From Lytechinus pictus (taxonomy: Eukaryota): DNA of 60,000 nucleotides. Below the pieces are notes generated by a model. The model saw only the letters and a list, made by a program, of their open reading frames with translations, was not told where the DNA came from and made no database searches. Position 1 is the first letter of the stretch, and every line of letters starts with the position of its first letter. Positions 30,101 through 55,962 of this stretch are shown here, one piece after another. The position numbers and the translations under genes are program-made. The stretch spans positions 25,732,001 through 25,792,000 of the forward strand of contig NC_087251.1 of NCBI RefSeq assembly GCF_037042905.1, given 5' to 3'.

Positions 30101-31187
30101 TCCTTTTCTCTTTTTTTCTTCTTGATCGTGAAAATTTTTGGGAGGGCCAAGCATCCCCCCATCTGTACGTCATGTGCGTGTACGTCGCTGGACATGCTGG
30201 ACATTAGTTGAAGTTTGAACCAAACGTAACATATGGTAGTGGATCATATTAGTATTACCGAACACTTTTCATGAATCCAATCATATCAAACACATTATTC
30301 TCATGAAATTCACCAAACTTTCACCATAAATACACAATTACCTACAAAATATCAATATGTAAAAATTTTGCCAAAATCATTTTTCCTTTTTACGATATTA
30401 GCTTCCAATCGGACCCCTCTTCGCATGTGAAATATTTTGGTCACTTAATTGAAAAAGGTATCGTATTACCGAACGTGTGTTATCTAAGGGAAAAGTTGAG
30501 AAAACAACAAAATCACTGATGAGCTATTTTGACCATATTTTATTATTTTAAGAATATTAAGACTTTGAAAATGTGTTTTTTACAATTTTTCATCATCTTT
30601 CTATTCAAGTTCTCTTTCAAGTTTCAGTCTTTGGAAGGATGTTGCAAAATTTTGACTCTTTGAGCATTATAATTTATTTTCTGATGCGTATGATGCGCGC
30701 GTTCGGTAATACAAGGCCGGTCGGTAATAACTCACTATACATAGTAGTAGTAAACAAAAAGCTTTCGAAATTCTTATCCGTTTTCGATCTGCTTCAGCCT
30801 TTTCAGGCGACAGCTACAGCCTACAGTATTTAGGGCCGCAACTCAGGGAGGCGTGTCAGCTCCCCTCGCCTCCCGGCCCAGCCCCAGGCTCGGGCCCGGT
30901 GCAGCGCACCAGCACGAAAGTCGACAACAGACAGCCAGATCAGTCTGACTCGGCTCAAACTTATATCTTTTGACCCGGGGCCAGGCTTAAGAACCAGCAA
31001 AAGCAATACATCGGCCATAAATAAACTTAAATCATAGAACCTAAAACTAATTAAAATAAAGTTAAAGGTAAATAAATAAGAAACTTCCGACTAAATTCTT
31101 TGAGAAACGAGATCGGCAGGTGGTTGATGATGTCCCCCTCAACGACAGGATGCAGGGAACTTTTAGGGCACGCCTAGCCTGCGCCTC

Positions 31188-31380
31188 GTGTGTGTGTGTG
31201 TGTGTATTTGAGTTTTGTCAGACGTGTATCAATCAGATATGATTATTTACGTCTGGGACCGACCTTTAACGTCACCATCCGAAAGACGTGACCAGGGCTC
31301 GAACCTCTGCATCAATTTGTAACTTCCCCGCATAGCTTGGATTACAGGCGCACGCCACAACGCACGCCACAACGCCTCGC
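31188..31380 (-). mobile_element. SINE with 7SL/Alu-domain-like head, B box, Deu/Nin-like core and (CA)n tail
   Basis: Minus strand reads GCGTTGTGGCGTGCGCCTGTAATCCAAGCTATGCGGGG..GGTTCGAGCCC..GTCTTTCGGATGGTGACGTTAAAGGTCGGTCC..(CA)n. Candidate TSD CGCCTCG at 31182-31188 and 31373-31379. Confidence 0.75.
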
Positions 31381-31392
31381 CTGCGCCCTTGC

Positions 31393-31732
31393 TAGTCTAG
31401 TTCTAGACGATATTAAACGAATTTATTTGCACCGATATATACGTTCTATTCCGTGCGTACGCCCAGCCGAGTGTGCGCGCAAAACCGAGAACCTGTACTC
31501 CGAGGATATTTCCTCGGAGTACAGGTTCTCGGTTTTGCGCGCACACTCGGCTGGGCGTACGCACGGAATAGAACGTATATATCGGCGCAAAACCGAGAAC
31601 CTGTACTCCGAGGATATTTCCTCGGAGTACAGGTTCTCGGTTTTGCGCGCACACTCGGCTGGGCGTACGCACGGAATAGAACGTATATATCGGTGCAAAT
31701 AAATTCGTTTAATATCGTCTAGAACTAGACTA
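31393..31732. mobile_element. Perfectly palindromic MITE with 9-bp TSD (AcademH-type), carrying a 108-bp internal duplication
   Basis: TAG...CTA termini; CGCCCTTGC duplicated at 31384-31392 and 31733-31741; 114-bp perfect arms around a 4-nt centre. Confidence 0.85.
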
Positions 31733-34691
31733 CGCCCTTGCCTGCTGCGCCTCACGGAAATAAAAGGATCCTTTTATTTCCGTGCTGCGCCTCGCGATGC
31801 ATATTTCCTTCCTTCTATTCTTCCCACGCATCCGATTCTTCCTTCTTTTTCATTGGATCACTTAAAGTCTTTTTTAGCTGGAATGTTTTTCTTGATTTTA
31901 TATTTTTGAGAGAAGCGACATGTAGAAATATGGATCAGGGAACTTTCATCATTTGAAAGAGATGGAAGAGAGGAAGATTGAGACCCCGTTATATTGGAAA
32001 AAAAGATGGAACTGTGTTTGGAAACAAAGGGGACAGGAGAGAAGAAATTAATAAAAAAAAGGAGGGGCGGGGGAAAGTGAGAGACAGAGAAAGGCATAAG
32101 CGTGATAAAGTCACAAAGAAGTTTTGGTTGATTTTATTCCAGTAATTTTTAGGCCTACCATATCTAAGAAAAGGGGAAAAACAATGGAGCCCCTAAAAGG
32201 TGACATGACCGGCCCCCCACTCATTCCCTCAAGTCGAATGAGTGAATATGTTGGCAATTATCAATATTCTCATGATCATCGATCGTTATTATCACTTTTT
32301 ATCTAATTATACCAGAAAGTAATTATTTACAGTTTTGATCCTGGCCAAAATTGTAATTTTATTTCATTTGTAGATTAAAAGTTTTTTAATGAATTAACAA
32401 GGGCTGACAAGCAAGTCTAGGCTCTAGCTTATCATTATCAAGTGCAGGTTTCTGGACAGTTCCATATATTGTGGACATGTTACATGTACTTTCTATAACT
32501 TAGTTAAAACATTCTTTATATACCCCCTATATGTAGGAGCTTCCTTGAATTATTATTTTTTTTTTAGTTCTCATGAAAATTTATAGTGCTCTCAAATGAT
32601 CATGACTTGGCCCGTGGGCAACTTATGAAGTAAAGTAAGGATGGAAAATATGGGGGTTGGGGGGAACAAAACAACGTTTTCAAAATTTTAATTTTATGGA
32701 ATTGCCCTTCTTTGAATTCTGAAATGTGTTCTTAGCTTGTTCATAAAAGCATCAAGATATCGACAGACAGCATGCATACGTTTGTGTATCTTATTTGTGG
32801 TACAGCAGTTTGAGATACAATTTTGCTTTTTAATATAGAAATGTCCCCGTCTCTCTAACTCATCATTTGGCCATAAAAACTTTCAAACTTTTTTTTTCAA
32901 TGATAAGAAACTCATTACCTCCAATTTACCACTCATATCATTTTCAAATCTCACTGCACATATGAACAGCAAATGAAAACAAAACTGAAATCTCATTATT
33001 GTATGGCAATTGTTTATTTCTTTATATTTTCACAATGTTTTTTTTTTCTTCAAACCATTTTTAATGGCAGAATAGATTTTAAATCCAATGTAATGTATAG
33101 GTAGAACACATAATGTCTCACAGCAGAGCAACCATATACCAACAAATCTACTAAAAAAACAATAATTCATTTCAGAGTACCTGATAAAGTGTTGATTTAC
33201 ATTACATCAAATGCTATTTCCATGTTTCGCTTCTTCCACTTCCTTCATATAAATTTCTTAAACATTAAAATTTAAGTTTAAAGAAATACTCTACATATTT
33301 CATCAAGGGAATAATAACACAAATTTCAAAATATCATAAATAAACTTTTAATCATTTAACATTTGGCAAATGAATCGCTGACTTCATGTACAAACAAATA
33401 ACAAAAAAACAAAAAATCCAAAATAATTGGATGGATTGAATAATACCAACCTTGAAGGTAAGATGCATCTTATTATTACAAACATATCTAACAATCATAT
33501 ACCCCATGTCTTACATGGTCTAAAGTGGCCTCCTTTTTCATCTAAGGGCCATTGTCAACTGGAACCAGATCATTCCTGTACAAAGTCCATGGTAACCTAC
33601 TGTGACAAAAAGGTCAACATACTTATGCACTGAGAAGCTGTTTACAATTGGGAAGAACTCCCGTCCTGAATGTGTATTTGTACAACAATATTCGCTACAG
33701 ATGGTCACCGTACATTTCTACATTGAAGATATCTTTTTATTTATACACATTGTACCTGTGTCAAGTTTAGGAGCCTACAGTCATAAATGTATCACTGTAA
33801 TATCAAACATGGGAAGAATTGGTAAATACCTCATATAAAGTGTGTTGATGTTTGACATCTGTACATCAATTATTGTCCATAAAATGAATTCAATAAATGC
33901 AAGGATCAGTGGTCTTTGCAGAAGGAAGTGGCACCCAAAAAAAAAAAATAATTAAACATGAAAACATAGTCTAATATATTGTTTGACATCTATGAGATAC
34001 AATTGAGGGGTGATCTTGTATTTGAGTGACTTCATTTTAAAAATCCAATTTTGTCAAACACTCAAAGGGCTTTAAAATAATATAAATGCAACAAGGATTT
34101 CATGTCTTGTTGTCATTGAGCATCAATTGAGTGTCAAGCGAGTTTATAAGATGACAAACATAAATTCAAGCATTAACTTTGCAATAGTAATTTCAAAAAC
34201 TGAAAATCATTACCAGATCAAGCAAAATTTGAATAATCATAGAACAGGGGGGGGGGGCACTTACCAGCAGATACAGCACATATTGGATTACCTCTCAACT
34301 TTTAAAATACTTTCCGATTTTCGGATACCAACAGCTTCAAAGCCCAAATGTCAGAATTATATAAAAAGATGCTCTTAGGCAATCAACTGACACAATTTTG
34401 GGAGCTTACAACAGTAGTTTATAACTTGCTAAATATGCTTTGATCCCAGTAAAATATCCATTAAGATTCAATACAAAGTTCATACCTAGCAAAACAGCAG
34501 CATTATAAAAAACAATGAACTCCTCCTGAATAAAACCAATATTCCTGAATCCTCACTGAACCAAACATGACATGAAGCATGCTCAATTTCAATGTAAAGA
34601 TTAACTCAATATAATTTGTAATCAAAGGTGTTGTGAGTTGTGTCATGAAACTTTTAGGAGCAATAAAGCTTTCAAATCCAAACTAAGAAAT

Positions 34692-46417: not shown

Positions 46418-47290
46418 CTAAATATCATCTAAAAATGCATCAAATATGTCTTTAAGCTTGTATCTGTTCAGAAACTCTGCGAAATAGCAGCTATAGTGTT
46501 CCTTCTTCCTCCCATGGGTTGGTAGGCTGGATATTAGCTGCTGCCAGTGGCCCTCGATTTTGTTTGTTGTAAAGCCGTCTTTGTTCTTATTATCCAAAAA
46601 ATGATTTACAGTTTCATGTGTATAACCATGCTTCACCAAGTTTGAGTATGATTTCCAGCAGTCGGAGATGATCTTGGTCCCTGGAAGAATGTACCACTTT
46701 ATTATTGGCAGGAGCGTTTCTTCAGATCTGTCATCAACAGCAACAATGAATGACTTCCTAGAATCTTCTTCAATGCCGCCAAACACCCATTGTCCTTCTA
46801 CCTTATGGCCCTTGTTGCCTTCGCCTCCTATTTTCTCCTCTGAATCAAGCAGATCACTTTGCATGCTTCTCGGCAAAACATCTCCCAATCTACTGCTGTC
46901 TTGCTGCTAATTTGCATTTGTTCCTTCATCAAATTTTGTGGCATGTTTTGTGTCCACCAATTCATCATCTTCAAAATCTCTAGAATACTTAGATTGGAAT
47001 GACCAAACCATGTTCCTCTCCTTATATTGATATTGTTTTTGAGTGTTTTTTCTTCTGGAACATCTTCCTGCACTCCCATTTGTAGCCATCCAGTTGATAT
47101 TTTGTCTCTACCAAATGTACAAGACTGTTGCATTCTGGGATAGATATGTATTGCAAAATAAGTCCTTTATTCATGAGCCATTGGAGTGTATACTCCTTGC
47201 TAACAAGAACATTTAAGAGTAAATCGTCATAACACTATCTTGTTATGAGAATGACTTATCCGATTGTATGTGTTTGGTTACTGTTCAATT
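46418..47290 (-). pseudogene. Merlin (IS1595/ISXO2-like) DDE transposase, frameshifted and internally deleted
   Basis: Overlapping frames give SKTAVDWEMFCREAC / KIGGEG..QWVFGGIE..DRSEETLLPIIKWYILPGTKIISDCWKSY..HETVNH..TNKIEGHW. The VEIDES segment carrying the first catalytic Asp is missing after KIGGEG. Confidence 0.88.
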
Positions 47291-47747: not shown

Positions 47748-50700
47748 ATGGAGGTATGTGCTAGATGTACTCTGAGATTTCATAAACTAATTTGCTACAC
47801 AAGATATTACCCAGTCAGTTTCATGGTGAGTATTAAAAAAAACACCACCCATCGTGATCATACAATTAATTAAGAAAATTGAACTGTGAACGATATTGTC
47901 TCAAAATCATTCGAAATTATTTATCGTATTGTACCTAAGCATAAGTGTATGTTGTAAGATTTTTTTAATCAACAAAATAATTTTTAAAAAATAGGGAAAA
48001 TCCCTGCTGACATCAGCTTGGTATTTGATTGACACAAAATGTAGCAGCATGTAGAATTATTTATTTGTGAGGTTTGACATCGAGATCAGAAGCTAAAAAG
48101 GGGAGTCATAAAAGCAGCATCTCTCTTATTACAATTGCATCCTCAAACCATCCCACCACCCCTTTCATCATCTACCCCTCGTCCAAATATACTTAAGAGC
48201 AAAATAGAATCAATGTCAACATTTCGGGCTATACAGAAGTATGCATGAAAATATGCTTCTAAACTGATGTATTCTTTTCTTCCAACTGCAGAGCACAAGG
48301 CCAAGTCCTGACATCCCAATTATCAGGATTCCCAAGGCCTTACAGAAGAAAGTCCAGACCATTCAAAAGGGCCAAAGGAAAGGTCCAATCAAGTGGAAGG
48401 GTAGGATCTTCACTGCTAGGCCTGGTACAGAGATCATCTCATCCAAGAGAAAGGAGTACAACCACTATCTTAACCAGACCTACCAGAAGCTCTCTCCTCC
48501 CAAGCTTGCATCTCAGGGCTGGAAGTCTAATAAATCCAGAGGGGATTACTTTAACATTCTAGCCTACAAAGGGGTAAGTGAATGCCTTGTTCTTGCAGCA
48601 GAAATTATATTGGCTACTCAAGCATCTAGTGAAAATTCAGTGGTTTTCAATTTCCCCTCACCAGGTGTTGGGTGTGAAATGTCCTTATCAGGGGGCAGGG
48701 GCTCTCATTCGTCTCTGAATATATCCTTCTTATGCCTACATTTACATCAAATGTCAGGCAAGCTCATGCCATGTCAATGTTCCCTGCCAAAAAATCTGAT
48801 ACAACGCTGGTCTTTGACTTACTTGTGGGCTTCTCTGCCCTCTTGCTGTCTCTCTGTCTTCATCTTTTTTTTCAATAACCAATCTGAAGAGTAACTTCAA
48901 GTTAAAATTACCCTTCGGTAATCACCTTCAGTAATGTATCATACTCTCTCTCCTTCTCTCTCCCTCCCTTTTCTCCCTCTATCTCTCTCTTATTCTGGCT
49001 TTCTTTAATTTTTATATCCATTTCTGTCTTTTCAGAATCCATCGATTACCAAGACACAAGAAAATGAAGCAGAGACTGCGGATAAGAAACCACAAACCTT
49101 TCAAGACCTGAAACTACATCCTTCTGTCATGAGAGGATTAGATTTTATGGATATCAGTACACCTACAAGTATACAGGTATTGTTCAATTAAACAAATGAA
49201 CTACCTATAAAAAGTTAAAGGATAACTCAAGTAGTTGCAGTCAGCAATAATTATTAAAGAAAGTCTGTAATATCAAGATTATACATTACCACATCATAAT
49301 GCATCTGGATCTAATACGTATTGACATAGTTCACGTCAACCGAATGCTCATAACAAATCCGTAGAGTGCCCAAGGTGCTAATTCTCATTACGTTAAGAAT
49401 TGCTTGGATCTTAAGATTTATATGTTATCCTCCCTTTCTTCCCCCATACCCTTGCAGTTGTCTGCAATACCTAGTATCCTGCAGGGAAAGAACACGCTGT
49501 GTGCTGCAGAGACTGGTAGCGGGAAGACCCTGACATACCTACTCCCGTTGATACAGAGGCTGCTTGATGAATCAAAACTGACAGGCACACCTACAGCTGC
49601 GGAGACTGGTCTGCCTAGGAGTGTGGTGCTTTTGCCCGTCGGTGAACTTGTCCATCAGGTTTTGGTAAGGGTCTCATTGGGCCACGTAACACAATGCTTT
49701 GTGAATGATTGCACTGTTGATTTGTGAAAAACTGATAGCACATTGTGGTCAATGCAAGGGATTGTCGGTGAACTTTTCTATCGGGTTTGGGTAAGGATCT
49801 CATTCATGGAATATTTTTTTTTTATTCTGGGGCTATATTTTTAGCCCAACAGCACATACTACATTGTAATACCATTTTATATTAGACCCTATGGGAATTT
49901 CAAGGGTTTTTTATTAGTTTTCCAGGGCTTTGTAGGGCTTTCCGGGGATGAATTCACCCCAAGCCTCTCATGTAAGTTCTCCCTGATCTCATTCGAGTTG
50001 GTTCTCTTGTGAAATAATCAAGGACAATATACACTCTTATGTTTTTGAATATATTTGGATATTGCATTGCAAAGCTAAATTGTAATATTATAGTCAACAA
50101 TCAGTGTCCCTTATTTGAAATGTCTGTTATACGGTAGCTCTCAAATTTATCAGAAATGTATTATTTGGATATCCTTTTTTTATTGTGTTTTCAGGAGGTT
50201 TGCAAGATTCTTGCTGAGTCTGCTGGTTTATCAGTTCAATACTTTGATGGGGAAACAAGCTTGGTAGGTGTCTACTTCATTATGTATTCATATTGCACGG
50301 TATATAAATGGAGTGACAGATTTACAGCATTTTTTCTTCTGTTTTCCTCCTATTCCCTTTCCTTTTCTGTTGCATTTCCATTTCCTCTTCCATATTGTCT
50401 TCCCCTTCATTTTTCCTTTCCTCTTCCTCTAACTCTTTCTCTTCATATTCCTCCTGCTTTTCCCTTCCTTTCCCTCTTACTCTTCCTCTTTCCCATTCCT
50501 CTTCCTCTTATTGTGTGTGTGTGTGTTTGAGGGGGGGTTAATAAAGAGTTAAATCGAACAGAAAACATGCTGGAAATTGAATGCAAATACGGTATCTAAT
50601 TTAGAAAATGCGACATAGATTTAGACATTAAGATTTTTTTTTTTTTTCTTTCAGAAAAACCTGGAAAAAAGACTGAGTTCATCCACCGACATTATCATTT

Positions 50701-53700
50701 CAACACCTGGACCCATTATAAATGCTGTGAGACAAGGTAACAATGTAAACTTAACCTGGGGTTTTTCACAAAGAATCAAGTGGAACTTGAGGAGGAGGAG
50801 AAGAAAAAGAAAGAGAAGAAGAGGAGGAGGGAAAAGGGGAGGAGGAGGAGAAGGAGGAAGAAGAAGGAGGACGGGGAGGAGAAGGAGGAAGAGGGAGTGA
50901 GGAAGGAAGAAAAAAAGAAAGAAATAAAAGGGGAGAATAAGATGAGAGATGGCTTGATAATGCATGTGTTTCTAGGTGCTGGTAATACTACTCCAGCTTG
51001 ATAACCCTATCTTATCTCTTCATCAGGTTATGGCAACTTGAACTGTGTATCTCATGTGGTAATAGATGAATCGGACACTATGCTTGATGATAGCTTTATT
51101 CAACAAACCCTCAAGATTTTAAAACGGATTAAGGTAAGTATAAAATGACTTATATTTGATTCATGTATGGAGAATGGGGAAAGGGCAGATATAATACAGT
51201 CTCTTGCTATCATTTGTATTGTTATTAGTTTAGATTTTTTCCATTTGTGAATCTATACCATTCAAATAGTGAATAATCATGAATGCATTGGTACAGAAAG
51301 AGTATCTTTCTGTTTGACGAGCCAAAACTGACTTGAGTAACATTATTGCATTATTCTTTCACCAACTGCATTAATGTCAATCTTGAAATATAGCTCAGAA
51401 AACAGAGTTGTGTGGTCAAAAGGTCAAAGGTCATGTAGAATAACTAACCTTGCTATCAATATTTTGTTGTAAACCATTTGAATTCAAATCTTTTTAGTTC
51501 TTCAGATGACCAGATTCAGATATTGTAGATGTTCCTGAATGTGCACGAGACTTTAGGGGGGGGGGGGGGTCATGAAGTGAGAATCCAAAATTCCACCAGC
51601 CAAAATTAAGCATTGTCATTGCTTTTACATGAAATTGGTTGTTAGTAATTGATTTGTAACCACCCCCTTTCAGATCGGAGAAGGAAAGGCATGTAAAGTA
51701 ACAGCCCCAGGTGAAGCCCAGCTGACGATGGTAGGAGCAACCATGCCGAGGAAAGCTACAAACATCCTTGCTGACATCATCCCGGTGAGTTGATGCCCTT
51801 ACAATGAAACCTGCCTATTAAGACCTCACAAAGTAAATGGGACCCCGTAACATAAAGATTAGTAATTGATTATTGGGCTGATTTTTATAATTGATCTTAC
51901 ACAATAATCAATGTAATCAATCACAGAAATCAGCCCTCACAGTCAATCGCTAAACTTTATGTAGGCTGTGCCCTGGGACTCATTTCGTAAAGAACTTACA
52001 ATTGTGGTAACTTTTGTCATTATGAAAACCCCAATACAAGCCTCGATTTTGATTGGCTGCTGACACCTGTTGCCATGGTAAATACTATAATGGCAAAGTT
52101 ACCGTGATTGTAAATTATTTATGAAACTCACCCTAGTAATGTGGTCTTTAAATGCAGATGGTCTTTATTCACAGGTTCCTGTCATACAGATGGCTTGTTT
52201 ATGTAACAAGTGATATGAGGCATATAACTAAATATTACAGTAACTTTGCTATCAATAACAGCTTCATGGTAAAAAGACTCAACAGTCAATCAAAATGGAG
52301 ATTTCCATGGCAGATAGTATAATGACAAATTTTCTATGATAGTAAGTTTTATGCCAAAAATCATCAATACTGTATTAATGAAGGAACAAAACTGAATTGA
52401 AATGAAAATGAAGTAAAATGAAATGAGAATGAAAATGGAATGAAAATGGAAATATATATCTGTTTGGCTTTTATTTGTTATAGCCTGAGAATATTGAGGT
52501 GATTTCTACCCCTCATCTTCATCGTATAATGCCTCATGTTCATCAAAAGTTTCTTAGGCTACACTCACAGGATAAAGCAGGTACGTCATTGAGTATGAGT
52601 TATGGTTGAAGTTTGATTTCGAGATTTGGTTTGTGTTCAAGTCTTGAGTTTGATATAAATTTTAATTTTGAGCTTAAATTTGTGTTTTGCATTTTTATTT
52701 TTATTTTGAGTCTTTGATTATTCGTTTTGATATTGAGTTTGATATGGAAGTTGAATTTGTGTTGAGTTTACATGTACTTGTATGTTTTTTTTTTTCTTCA
52801 AATTTTGACTTTTGTTTTTGTGTTTGTTTCTTTATAATTCGTAAACTTATTTTGAATTTCAATTATTAATTGAAATTCAGTTTGTATTTGATTTTTATTT
52901 CAGGAGCTTTTTATATTGAAGTTCTGAAGTTTTGCTTCCCTGAAATTATATAGTGTTCATTTATGTTTGACAAAATTTGTTGGATTGTATAGATGAAGAT
53001 TGACAATAAAGTGGTACGAATTCATATATTTTATTGATTTAAGTTTCTTTCTATTTAATTTGATATTAATTTCATAGTTTCTATTGATATGGATTTCTTT
53101 GATACGCATCCTTATAATTAAATTTACAGTTTGGGAAATAAATAGTAGACTATATCGCATGTGAGTAAGTGATCTGATGGTTATTTCCCAAACTGTATGT
53201 TTATTTTATTATGTTTTCTTATATTTACTCTCCATTTCATGATAATTAATATTCTCTTTAAAAATAGAATGTATATTATATTCTTCTATTATCCACCTCC
53301 ATACAGTCAAGATCCTTGAGCTAGTAAAGAGAGAACAGAAGAGTCGTGTTTCTACCATGGTATTCTGTAACACAGCATCGACCTGTGATTGGTTAGCTCA
53401 CTTTCTCACTGAGAATGGCGTTCCAGCTCTTAGATTACATTCTAAAATGGGTGGCAAGGTATGGGTTTCAATTATATTTGACAAAGAGAGAAAGAAAATG
53501 TTATTTTGATGGTTTACAAGCAGAAGGATGTAACTCAATGTGTTGCCATTTTGAAATTTTGGTACCAAATTGATCAGTAAGACCTTAAGATACTGAAACT
53601 TATAAAAAAAAAGTCACTCATTTACTTATCCAACTCTCTGTTGTACTCCAGTTACAACATCTAACTGGAGTACACTTTGTTTAGTAACACAAAGTGATAA

Positions 53701-55804
53701 CTCTGCAATGTTTTGTTTTGTGGAAAATCATTAACATCTCATTTCTCAAACTCACTGTTAGTGAGTTAAGTTCTTCCATTTGCTAACCCGTGATATGATG
53801 TTAATGAAATTTCAAATTTAAGAAAAGGAAGTAGTATAACTTGTACCCAGCAATCTCCTAAATAATAATAATAATAATTGTGGAGCGTTGTGGCCCAGTG
53901 GATTAGTCTTATGACTTTGAAACAGGGGGTTGTGGGTTCGAATCCCAGCCATGGCATAATTTTCTTCAAGAAATTCATCCACATTGTGCTGCACTCAACC
54001 CAGGTGAGGTGAATGGGTACCTAGCAGGAATTTATTCCTTGAAATGCGTGTGCGCTGTAATCTTAGTAATTACGGCTGCCAAGCTACAGCTGGGGTAATA
54101 ATATCCTTTTGATAAAGTCCTTTGGAAGCGCATAGAGACATTATTCATAATGTGATATGCGCTATACAAGAACTGTATATTATTATAATTATCTCCTCAA
54201 TGCCTTCTTATTGGCTAATAGTAATGTTATGTATGCAACAACCTTTTAGTATTCAAGACATTAAATGAAAGTCTGCATGCTTGGGTGATCTCACTCTTTT
54301 TTAAATCCATTTTCTGTTTCATTCTTGAAATTACCCTTTCTGACTTTTCACATTTCCTATGGGATTTGAAGAGTTTTGAAATAACGTTGTAAATCATTTA
54401 GAAGCTAGGAACATCCTCTTTCCATCTCCGTACATAAAAAGTAGTGTCACTTTATAATACACAATCTCCATAGTAACTATTGAAACATAATTATTCCTAG
54501 CTAATTGATGCAAGGAATCCAGAATACTCAATGAAGACATGTATGTCTATTCATAAATCTTATTAAAACTGCGTGTTTGACTATTTGATCCAATTCTTCC
54601 TTATTTCAAAACTCACATGAACAAATACTTTTGTACAAATAAGGACATAAACACCTTTATTTTCAAACAATCAAATCTTAGGAAAATTGTGTACTTTATA
54701 GTACTGCCCTTTTTTATGAAAACATAACTTTTGTGAAAATGAAAACTTCATTCATTTTTCACTGTGTTTAAATCTCTCATCCAGTCTCGTAGTGGAATAA
54801 TGAAGGCCTTCAAAGCAGGTGAAGCTAACATCCTGGTCTGTTCTGATATTGCATCCAGAGGAGTAGATACAGTAGAGGTATGTCATATAAATTCATTTCA
54901 TATCATAAGTCTTAAAGGCAGTGGCGTACCTAGGGAGAGGGGACAATTGGGCATGTTGCCCGGGCAAAAAAAAATTAGGAAAAAAGAATATTAGTCAATC
55001 TAATGAACATCTGAAGAAGCCACTAGTGTCAAAATTTAGAAGGGATGAATTTTCAGCTGTGGTAATGCTCCTTGCTACAGCTGTTCAAAAGGACACAATT
55101 TCAGCGCTTTACACTGTTACTGAAGGTCGACGGGCTACAGTTTTTAGCTGATGTCTAATATACTCTTCACCCAAGACACATCACTGCCCATGGGAACAGA
55201 ATATCTTACAAACAGGGCAGATTGTGAAGTACTGGTAATATATTTTTCATGACCATACCAATTTTCTTCAGTTTCATTCCTTCATAATAAAGGAAGCATG
55301 ATAGCTTATTTGGTAGAATGGTAAGGATGCAAGATTGATTATTTTTTCTGAGCATCATGTGTGCCCCACACAATGACTGACTAGAATATTCCTTAGAAAG
55401 TGATGAATGTACTCACATTCTTTTTGCAGGCAAGACTAATTGAATCCAATAATAGGAATGGTAATCTATAAGCACCTTGATACAATGTTTTAAGCAGTAC
55501 CCTATAAATAACCGGTACTGCTAATCTTCATAAGCCCTCTCTCTCTCTCACCCAATGTGCCATACTAAAACGGTCCTGCACTGTAGACATCCAGATCCAG
55601 AGTCAAAACTGGATTATTGTTTTTATTATCATTGGTTTTGATTTTCCACAGGTGCAGCATGTGGTAAACTTTGATTTCCCTCCGTTCATGTCTGACTACA
55701 TCCATCGAGCAGGGAGGGTAGGGCGTGTCGGCAGCCAAGGGAGCGGTCATGTGACTAACTTTGTGGTACACAAGTGGGATGTTGAGCTGGTCAATAAGAT
55801 TGAG
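47748..55804 (+). CDS. DDX28: Mitochondrial DEAD-box RNA helicase DDX28, 12 coding exons; terminal exon not identified
   Basis: Exons: 47748-47825, 48292-48573, 49036-49176, 49458-49664, 50195-50263, 50655-50736, 51027-51133, 51674-51784, 52484-52580, 53307-53458, 54785-54877, 55652-55804 (524 codons). Motifs: DDX28-type N-terminus ([15 protein letters not shown]), Q motif (PTSIQ), [45 protein letters not shown]. The first exon is the least certain. Confidence 0.94.
50788..50935. repeat. Polypurine (GAG/GAA) tract in a DDX28 intron
   Basis: About 145 nt almost purely A/G; a pyrimidine-rich tract lies at 50330-50510. Confidence 0.75.
51839..52135. repeat. Two adjacent short degenerate palindromic MITEs
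   Basis: ACATAAAG..TAG / CTAAACTTTATGT arms at 51839-51973, and TTACAAT..GGTAACTT / AAGTTACC..ATTGTAA arms at 51975-52133. Confidence 0.45.
53880..54190 (+). mobile_element. tRNA-derived SINE, same family as 6751-7030
   Basis: GTGGAGCGTTGTGGCCCAGTGGATT..GGTTCGAATCCCAGCCATGGC..ACCCAGGTGAGGTGAATGGGTACC..(ATT)n tail. Confidence 0.88.
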
Positions 55805-55962
55805 GTAAGTTATCGGTTACAATCACTGGTAGACCTCCCATGCAGATAATGCACTTTTAAGAGAAATTTTAGTGTAATGGGAAAGTTGGAAACATCTGTG
55901 AGTTTTCAAGATATGTTCTTGTAAGCTAGAAATAAATTATGGTGAAAAGGTCTAGATCTACC

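Follow-up and report, generated by a model that had tools for sequence, protein, structure and literature searches.

A 60,000-nt stretch of DNA, referred to below as the window, contains one member of a young SINE family of a sea urchin, in which a 7SL-derived head is joined to the 3′ end of a tRNA-His, a short piece of the conserved Deu/Nin domain, a stem-loop and a (CA)n tail. Taken singly the copy in the window is ordinary; it is the family that is unusual. The homology to 7SL ends at base 45–47, which is the end of the 5′ Alu domain, and this domain is the only part of 7SL that is clearly kept, since in shuffle tests the head matches 7SL, whereas the rest of the element matches neither 7SL as a whole nor its 3′ end. 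We give even chances to the reading that this is the first invertebrate 7SL-derived SINE, a natural minimal Alu of a fourth independent origin, which would have kept exactly the 46-nt SRP9/14-binding domain and borrowed the B box of tRNA-His because the B boxes of the host 7SL genes lie outside the transcript.

RESULTS

Anatomy of the window copy

The element measures about 165 nt plus tail (Table 1). A previous sequence-only reading of this DNA had recognized a 7SL-like head, a 12-nt duplication, a B box, a core, a CA tail and a 7-bp target site duplication (TSD) on the minus strand, all of which were found where it had placed them. The A and B boxes lie about 50 nt apart, and no T4 is read within the element. 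The suspicion that the outermost 8 nt or so of the head might derive from the target proved partly right: the last four bases of the 5′ TSD also fit family bases 5–8, a microhomology at the 5′ junction; about four family bases are missing from the 5′ end, and the next twelve are duplicated. In the predicted fold this duplication disturbs helix 3 and splits off the closing helix of the head. Private 5′ duplications of a similar kind occur in two other copies (L015, L079). Because its 5′ end is clipped and duplicated and its head disturbed, the window copy is probably a product of the family and not a source of new copies. Its exact 7-bp TSD lies within a GC-rich, degenerate repeat, where a duplication of 15 bp with a single mismatch could also be read but is less likely.

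Table 1. Features of the SINE copy, in window coordinates
Feature	Position	Strand	Basis or remark
SINE copy	31188..31375	minus	one member of a sea urchin SINE family
5′ TSD copy, 7 bp	31373..31379	(-)	family 5′ end known from other copies
12-nt tandem duplication of head start	31361..31372 (31349-31360 / 31361-31372)	(-)	private to the window copy
7SL-derived 5′ Alu domain (family bases 6-47)	31322..31363	(-)	A box, helix 3, UGUA turn, helix 4, 3′ strand of closing helix
Linker with weak in-register likeness to 7SL bases 45-66	31307..31321	(-)	shuffle p 0.013-0.16
tRNA-His 3′ end (T arm and acceptor strand)	31287..31306	(-)	Pol III B box at 31295-31305
5′ piece of Deu/Nin conserved domain (putative Inv/alpha part)	31256..31287	(-)	by-eye comparison, unscored
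3′ stem-loop, stems of 7 bp and 6 bp	31219..31255	(-)	predicted fold
A-rich spacer preceding the tail	31206..31218	(-)	sequence
(CA)n tail, nine units	31188..31205	(-)	unit number varies among copies
3′ TSD copy, 7 bp	31182..31188	(-)	exact repeat of 31373-31379
Predicted Pol III stop of the window copy (first downstream T4)	31053..31056	(-)	about 130 nt beyond the tail

A young, multi-copy family

A search of the genome (812 Mb) with the stretch from the window returned 1,381 candidates. Among the best 40 of these that were scored, the window copy included, 23 of the 39 others are 100% identical to it over 171–176 bases; identical copies lie on many contigs, each in different AT-rich flanks. 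Exact matches genome-wide number 740 for a 27-nt head pattern (seven 7SL genes included), 1,044 for the core and 1,258 for the tail, with no match to the reversed control in any of the three cases, and by arithmetic from these counts we estimate the family at 1,400–1,700 copies, mutated ones included. Taking the first 30 places matched by the core pattern and by the tail pattern (60 loci) and merging duplicates left 42 distinct copies, whose median identity to a window-type copy is 98.2%; 37 of them begin no more than 8 nt from the 7SL 5′ end and five are truncated. TSDs of 5–11 nt flank 20 of 68 copies, as compared with 3.4 expected from shuffled pairings, TSDs of 3–4 nt occur in 23, which is near chance, and the remaining 25 have none. 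One head–body junction is common to every copy read, diagnostic subfamilies are present, and all copies read carry a (CA)n tail, poly(A) being absent. The family is a young, multi-copy SINE, and its short TSDs, variable repeat tail and 5′ truncations are marks of target-primed insertion; the multi-copy family anticipated from the single copy is borne out by the genome counts.

Several copies sit at slightly shifted positions within shared host repeats (L002/L007/L010/L101, L014/L028/L046/L089 and L017/L019/L026), and two head-to-tail pairs were noted (L073/L074, L125/L126). Target preference or carriage by other elements are possible reasons for these clustered and paired copies.

The 7SL-derived head

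The host genome contains seven full 7SL genes, and it is with these, not with human 7SL, that the head was compared. Family bases 1–30 are identical to the 7SL gene on contig C12 at 30/30 positions and to the other six genes at 29/30. The window head agrees with host 7SL genes in 29/30 and 30/31 columns, with one gap each. An intact copy aligns to positions 1–44 of Rfam Metazoa_SRP, closing helix included, with an E-value of 1.3e-7 and 34.1 bits, short of the gathering score (70) that applies to the complete RNA; the window copy alone reaches 13.9 bits (E 0.49). The sequence-only reading had suggested this very model for checking the head, which it derived from 7SL. In shuffle tests, full-length family heads came out closer to host 7SL (p < 1/3000) than to tRNA-His, the one tRNA tested (p = 0.08). 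The rest of the element gave p 0.18–0.9 against 7SL; the 7SL 3′ end (250–299) finds no match in the SINE body (p 0.91–0.92), and the 15–20 bases past the head align in register with 7SL bases 45–66 weakly (p 0.013–0.16). ARAGORN found no tRNA genes within the 60,000-nt window.

In its closing helix the SINE has ACU/AGU, as does the C12 gene, whereas the other six genes have ACC/GGU, and for this reason the head donor would have been a 7SL gene of the C12 type. A short C12-type 7SL fragment lacking the SINE body was also observed (L234, G000:C4:2435850).

In a sample of 94 heads, which leans to the subfamily of the window copy, 86 are 45 or 47 nt long, and length changes are confined to loop 4. 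Of the 94, 76 have an intact helix 3, 69 an intact closing helix and 84 the loop-pairing GC, and 59 heads show all features; helix 4 and the UGUA turn are found in 93/94 and 92/94, counts that are partly built in, these bases having anchored the search. According to the Rfam structure alignment, the helices, the UGUA turn and the loop–loop GC pairs of the 5′ domain can form, albeit disturbed in the window copy. Loop 4 has drifted, being 9–11 nt long in the common subfamilies and having lost the C after AGCUA in most, and the A-U pair that caps helix 4 is lost. Changes that subfamilies have in common lie outside the helices, the turn and the loop GC. In a rare subfamily (L232, L236, L242) the G-U at the base of helix 3 has become A-U, and helix 4 is as in 7SL. 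The one two-sided helix change found also occurs in a 7SL paralogue and so does not speak for selection acting on the SINE; covariation is not visible because the copies are too young. Energy folding showed no gain in stability of the heads over shuffled sequences (z 0.06–0.71), host 7SL itself scoring 0.03.

B box, core and 3′ end

Together with nine adjoining bases, the B box corresponds to the 3′ end of the host tRNA-His, with 18/20 positions identical in the window-type subfamily and 20/20 in the L040 type; this upholds the chimeric build proposed earlier and traces its B box to tRNA-His. The genome also carries a tandem array of at least 27 tRNA-His genes spaced about 160 bp apart, some with a GCG anticodon (L142–L155, G000:C11:6.687–6.691 Mb).

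To the eye, the 32 bases at 31256–31287 are similar to the beginning of the Deu domain in AmnSINE1 and EbuSINE1 as drawn in Fig. S4 of PMC7245038, and also to the core of the moth elements HaSE1 and HaSE3 in the supplement to PMC5786205; mollusc rows were compared in the same way. The Deu/Nin-like core of the sequence-only reading is present, but limited to the first 30–40 bases of that domain: the tail side follows at once, and the full Deu domain (about 140 nt) is absent. In the covered sections of PMC5804259 and PMC4758252, Nin lies within Deu, and Inv corresponds to the 5′ portion of Nin; the likeness to the Inv/alpha domain rests on the Deu 5′ end and the HaSE1/3 core by eye, not on the Inv consensus itself. 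A relation to MetaSINEs was rejected, the 66-bp Meta consensus being unlike the SINE body by eye. The 3′ stem-loop has a predicted energy of −13.2 kcal/mol (z −1.8) and was equalled in stability by 11 of 200 shuffles; judged from this model, it is a likely recognition signal for a LINE.

Searches for a partner LINE and a parent SINE

Alignment of the tail to the 3′ regions of 90 reverse transcriptase (RT) loci, from 150 scored among 12,239 candidate RT hits, yielded no convincing partner. The best tail match was to the 3′ terminus of L202/L227, a young LINE whose frame measures 1,008 aa and whose tails are (AAATC)n; with 11 ends tested, it stood out from shuffled ends at p < 1/3000. It was rejected as partner: it is a post hoc pick, the similarity consists of AT-rich sequence and does not take in the stem-loop, and L227 matches better than most other members of its family. 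A young LINE family with an intact 1,008-aa endonuclease–RT frame and (AAATC)n tails (L254–L283, L304) comprises about 30 copies with 98–100% protein identity. Two tail patterns designed to avoid typical SINE copies, like 16 tail-only places, led to SINE copies or fragments only.

Searches for a tRNA-headed parent gave 10 matches to a Deu-type pattern, as compared with 15 in the control, and 18 to a pattern of A box plus junction, all of them SINE copies; a tRNA 5′ half was found in 0 of 42 unbiased copies.

Host 7SL genes and SRP proteins

In six of the seven 7SL genes (L031–L036) a consensus Pol III B box lies 18–42 bases beyond the 7SL 3′ end, downstream of the terminator, and has been kept although the flanks have diverged. 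The C12 gene (L037) has no such B box within 120 bases. A literature search on downstream 7SL B boxes found nothing relevant. An exon of SRP14 is present in the genome; the search for SRP9 gave no match and was itself uninformative.

Three 7SL genes in tandem (L031, L035, L036; G000:C10:7.91–7.92 Mb) are each preceded, at a distance of about 35 bases, by a SINE copy in the same orientation, and these three genes were duplicated after the SINE had inserted.

Neighbouring features in the window

The echinoderm host presumed from the start is corroborated by the exons of a DDX28 helicase at 49365–55849 (+), one of which (49434–49670) shares 94% identity with the protein of Lytechinus pictus and 77% with its counterpart in Strongylocentrotus purpuratus. 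A remnant of an ISXO2-like transposase occupies 46418–46906 (-). Only 13 bases from the SINE lies a palindromic element (31393–31732) with a 9-bp TSD (31384–31392 / 31733–31741) and an internal 108-bp repeat. Its ends recur genome-wide at 100% identity in 198 candidates, as copies of 200–340 bp and of about 8.5 kb; the five pairs read all have 9-bp TSDs, and one 8.5-kb copy contains no open frame of at least 120 aa. These marks make it Mutator-like. Matches to Rfam microRNA families came from this neighbour, all below gathering scores, and were discarded.

DISCUSSION

How the SINE may have arisen and spread

In our judgement the SINE probably spreads through Pol III transcription, docking on ribosomes through SRP9/14 and copying of its 3′ end by a LINE. 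A template switch or recombination would have replaced the 5′ half of a Deu/Nin SINE with a tRNA-His head by 7SL bases 1–45, a C12-type 7SL gene being the presumed donor. The outcome would be a hybrid internal promoter, with an A box from 7SL and a B box from tRNA, and it is the presence of these two boxes that suggests transcription by Pol III. The tRNA B box may have been needed because six of the seven host 7SL genes hold their good B box outside the transcript: a copy of bare 7SL RNA would lose it, so that the chimera with a tRNA B box would be the form that spread.

The use of SRP9/14 by the SINE, which we favour to the same degree, is suggested by the likeness of its head to 7SL. In human cells, according to the covered sections of Moldovan et al. 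(PMC11760393), a 46-nt 5′ Alu domain binds SRP9/14 and retains about 86% of Alu activity, but lacking a B box it achieves no second round; in sequence, the urchin element combines this domain with a B box. For the human domain, the covered part of PMC4238359 describes three base pairs that link the two loops, with the U-turn and helices 3 and 4 as the contact sites of SRP9/14. The urchin head RNA may likewise fold into a three-way junction that binds SRP9/14, and the bound protein would then dock the SINE RNA at ribosomes. There its 3′ end would be recognized by the protein of a LINE with short-repeat tails, of the CR1/L2 or RTE type, instead of the poly(A)-binding L1, and would be copied by target-primed reverse transcription. 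Exchange of heads on a Deu/Nin core has precedents, 5S rRNA and a LINE promoter being documented in the covered part of PMC4758252.

Alternative explanations

A less probable reading, though one to be taken seriously, is that the 7SL piece merely supplies part of the promoter (A box and start site) and a stable 5′ end; it would end at base 45–47 because the reverse transcriptase changed templates on reaching the border of a folded domain, SRP9/14 would have exerted no selection, and the 3′ stem-loop alone would recruit the LINE protein. That the element ends in a stem-loop and a CA tail rather than in poly(A) would suit this reading, as would the drift of loop 4. So would the occurrence of the same core under tRNA, 5S rRNA and LINE-promoter heads (covered parts of PMC4758252; HaSE1/HaSE3), which makes heads look interchangeable. 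On the other hand, an A box needs only the first 15 bases or so, yet 45–47 were kept, and the changes shared across subfamilies leave the helices, turn and loop GC untouched; moreover, if the weakly matching linker is also 7SL-derived, it has decayed and the domain has not. Retention of the domain for SRP9/14 binding remains the reading that we prefer.

The other explanations concern the family itself. One-off 7SL retrocopies or 7SL–SINE chimeras, forming no self-propagating family, could be imagined from the existence of at least one bare 7SL fragment (L234) and of SINE copies adjoining three 7SL genes, but the shared junction, the diagnostic subfamilies, the 740 exact heads and the 23 of 39 top matches that are identical in different flanks make this very unlikely. 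It is still harder to believe that we are dealing with an ordinary tRNA-derived SINE whose worn 5′ half is 7SL-like by chance. The B box and the bases that follow are indeed those of tRNA-His, and the window copy alone gives an Rfam E-value of only 0.49; yet the family head is identical at 30/30 positions to one host 7SL gene, separates tRNA-His from 7SL in the shuffle tests (p 0.08 versus p < 1/3000) and, in an intact copy, reaches E 1.3e-7. Contamination with primate Alu or an assembly artefact may be practically dismissed: the head is Alu-like since both derive from 7SL, but it has the host's own 7SL sequence and is joined to parts foreign to Alu, the copies are dispersed over many contigs in distinct AT-rich flanks with TSDs, and at least 75% of sampled element words recur in 14 public runs from six studies and under two organism labels (one run maybe the assembly source; runs with fewer than five element words were left out of the comparison).

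Classification and significance

With its 7SL-derived head, uniform chimeric structure and own subfamilies, and being distinct from retrocopies, the urchin family is a SINE1 in the definition of Kojima. Like SINEs in general, it is short, interspersed and present in at least 100 copies. It falls short of the head rule of SINEBase, which in the covered part of PMC3531059 requires an identity of 60% or more to 7SL, 5S or a tRNA across no fewer than 60 nt; the clear overlap is 45–47 nt to 7SL and 20 nt to tRNA, and its extension to about 66 nt is weak. The family is not of the Alu/B1/Tu/Urop type, having neither a 7SL 3′ end nor poly(A).

In the sections covered, 7SL SINEs are listed from primates, rodents and hagfish (PMC10886601, 2024) and from supraprimates, hagfish and now the shrew mole (PMC13023118, 2026), and both papers hold them to be very rare and confined to vertebrates; a single internal deletion has been described as common to all of them. 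The urchin family breaks both the vertebrate-only range and the common deletion. No invertebrate 7SL SINE was found in the full-text literature searched, a scope outside which lie most subscription journals, Repbase, Dfam and SINEBase. The sea urchin SINEs SINE2-1 to SINE2-6_SP and SP-4 to SP-6 are filed in the sources covered as tRNA-type, CORE, Deu or Meta, and the two named ones whose heads could be compared are both tRNA-like.

The promoter and the SRP9/14 handle, which are tangled in Alu, are separate in the urchin SINE, and this would permit a direct test of the ribosome-docking model. The 46-nt domain that was defined by deletion in HeLa cells here appears to have been isolated by evolution, and the natural loop-4 variants of the subfamilies suit assays of binding and transposition, in an animal with accessible embryos. 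Young copies should also serve as insertion markers. If the element is truly a natural minimal Alu, docking through SRP9/14 would pay off with a partner that is not L1 and does not use poly(A), and would do so across deuterostomes.

Comparison with known systems

The nearest case is SINE1-1_EBu of the hagfish Eptatretus burgeri (Kojima 2020, PMC7245038, sections covered). Both families are young, put an independent 7SL head on an older tRNA SINE, number in the thousands or so (2,363 in hagfish), end in a microsatellite tail and likely have a partner other than L1. However, SINE1-1_EBu keeps 7SL bases 1–96 and the 3′ end, that is, the whole Alu domain with its own B box, whereas the urchin SINE, in an invertebrate, keeps only bases 1–45/47 and takes its B box from tRNA-His. 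The hagfish element has a bipartite RTE tail, (AAC)n and TSDs of about 17 bp, in contrast to the Deu/Nin piece, (CA)n and TSDs of 4–11 bp of the urchin element.

With the Deu/Nin/Inv SINEs (AmnSINE1, EbuSINE1, SINE2-3_SP, HaSE1/HaSE3, Sgl_LP) the family shares the first 30–40 bases of the domain; unlike them it lacks the rest of Deu, and a 7SL head is not among the heads reported in the papers covered. Alu, B1 and Tu of Euarchontoglires and Urop of the shrew mole (Kosushkin et al. 2026, PMC13023118, sections covered) have in common with it the 7SL 5′ Alu domain at the very 5′ end and an A box from 7SL; they have lost about 183 nt internally, retain the two ends of 7SL, terminate in poly(A) and use L1, whereas the urchin SINE has neither the 7SL 3′ part nor poly(A).

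In its 7SL portion the urchin SINE is like the engineered minimal Alu SA46/AY46 (Moldovan, Yin and Moran, PMC11760393, sections covered): the same stretch of 7SL is retained, and the differences from 7SL fall mainly in the loops. SA46, however, was engineered, depends on an external promoter and, having no B box, stops after one round, whereas the urchin SINE occurs naturally as a family and contains a B box from tRNA.
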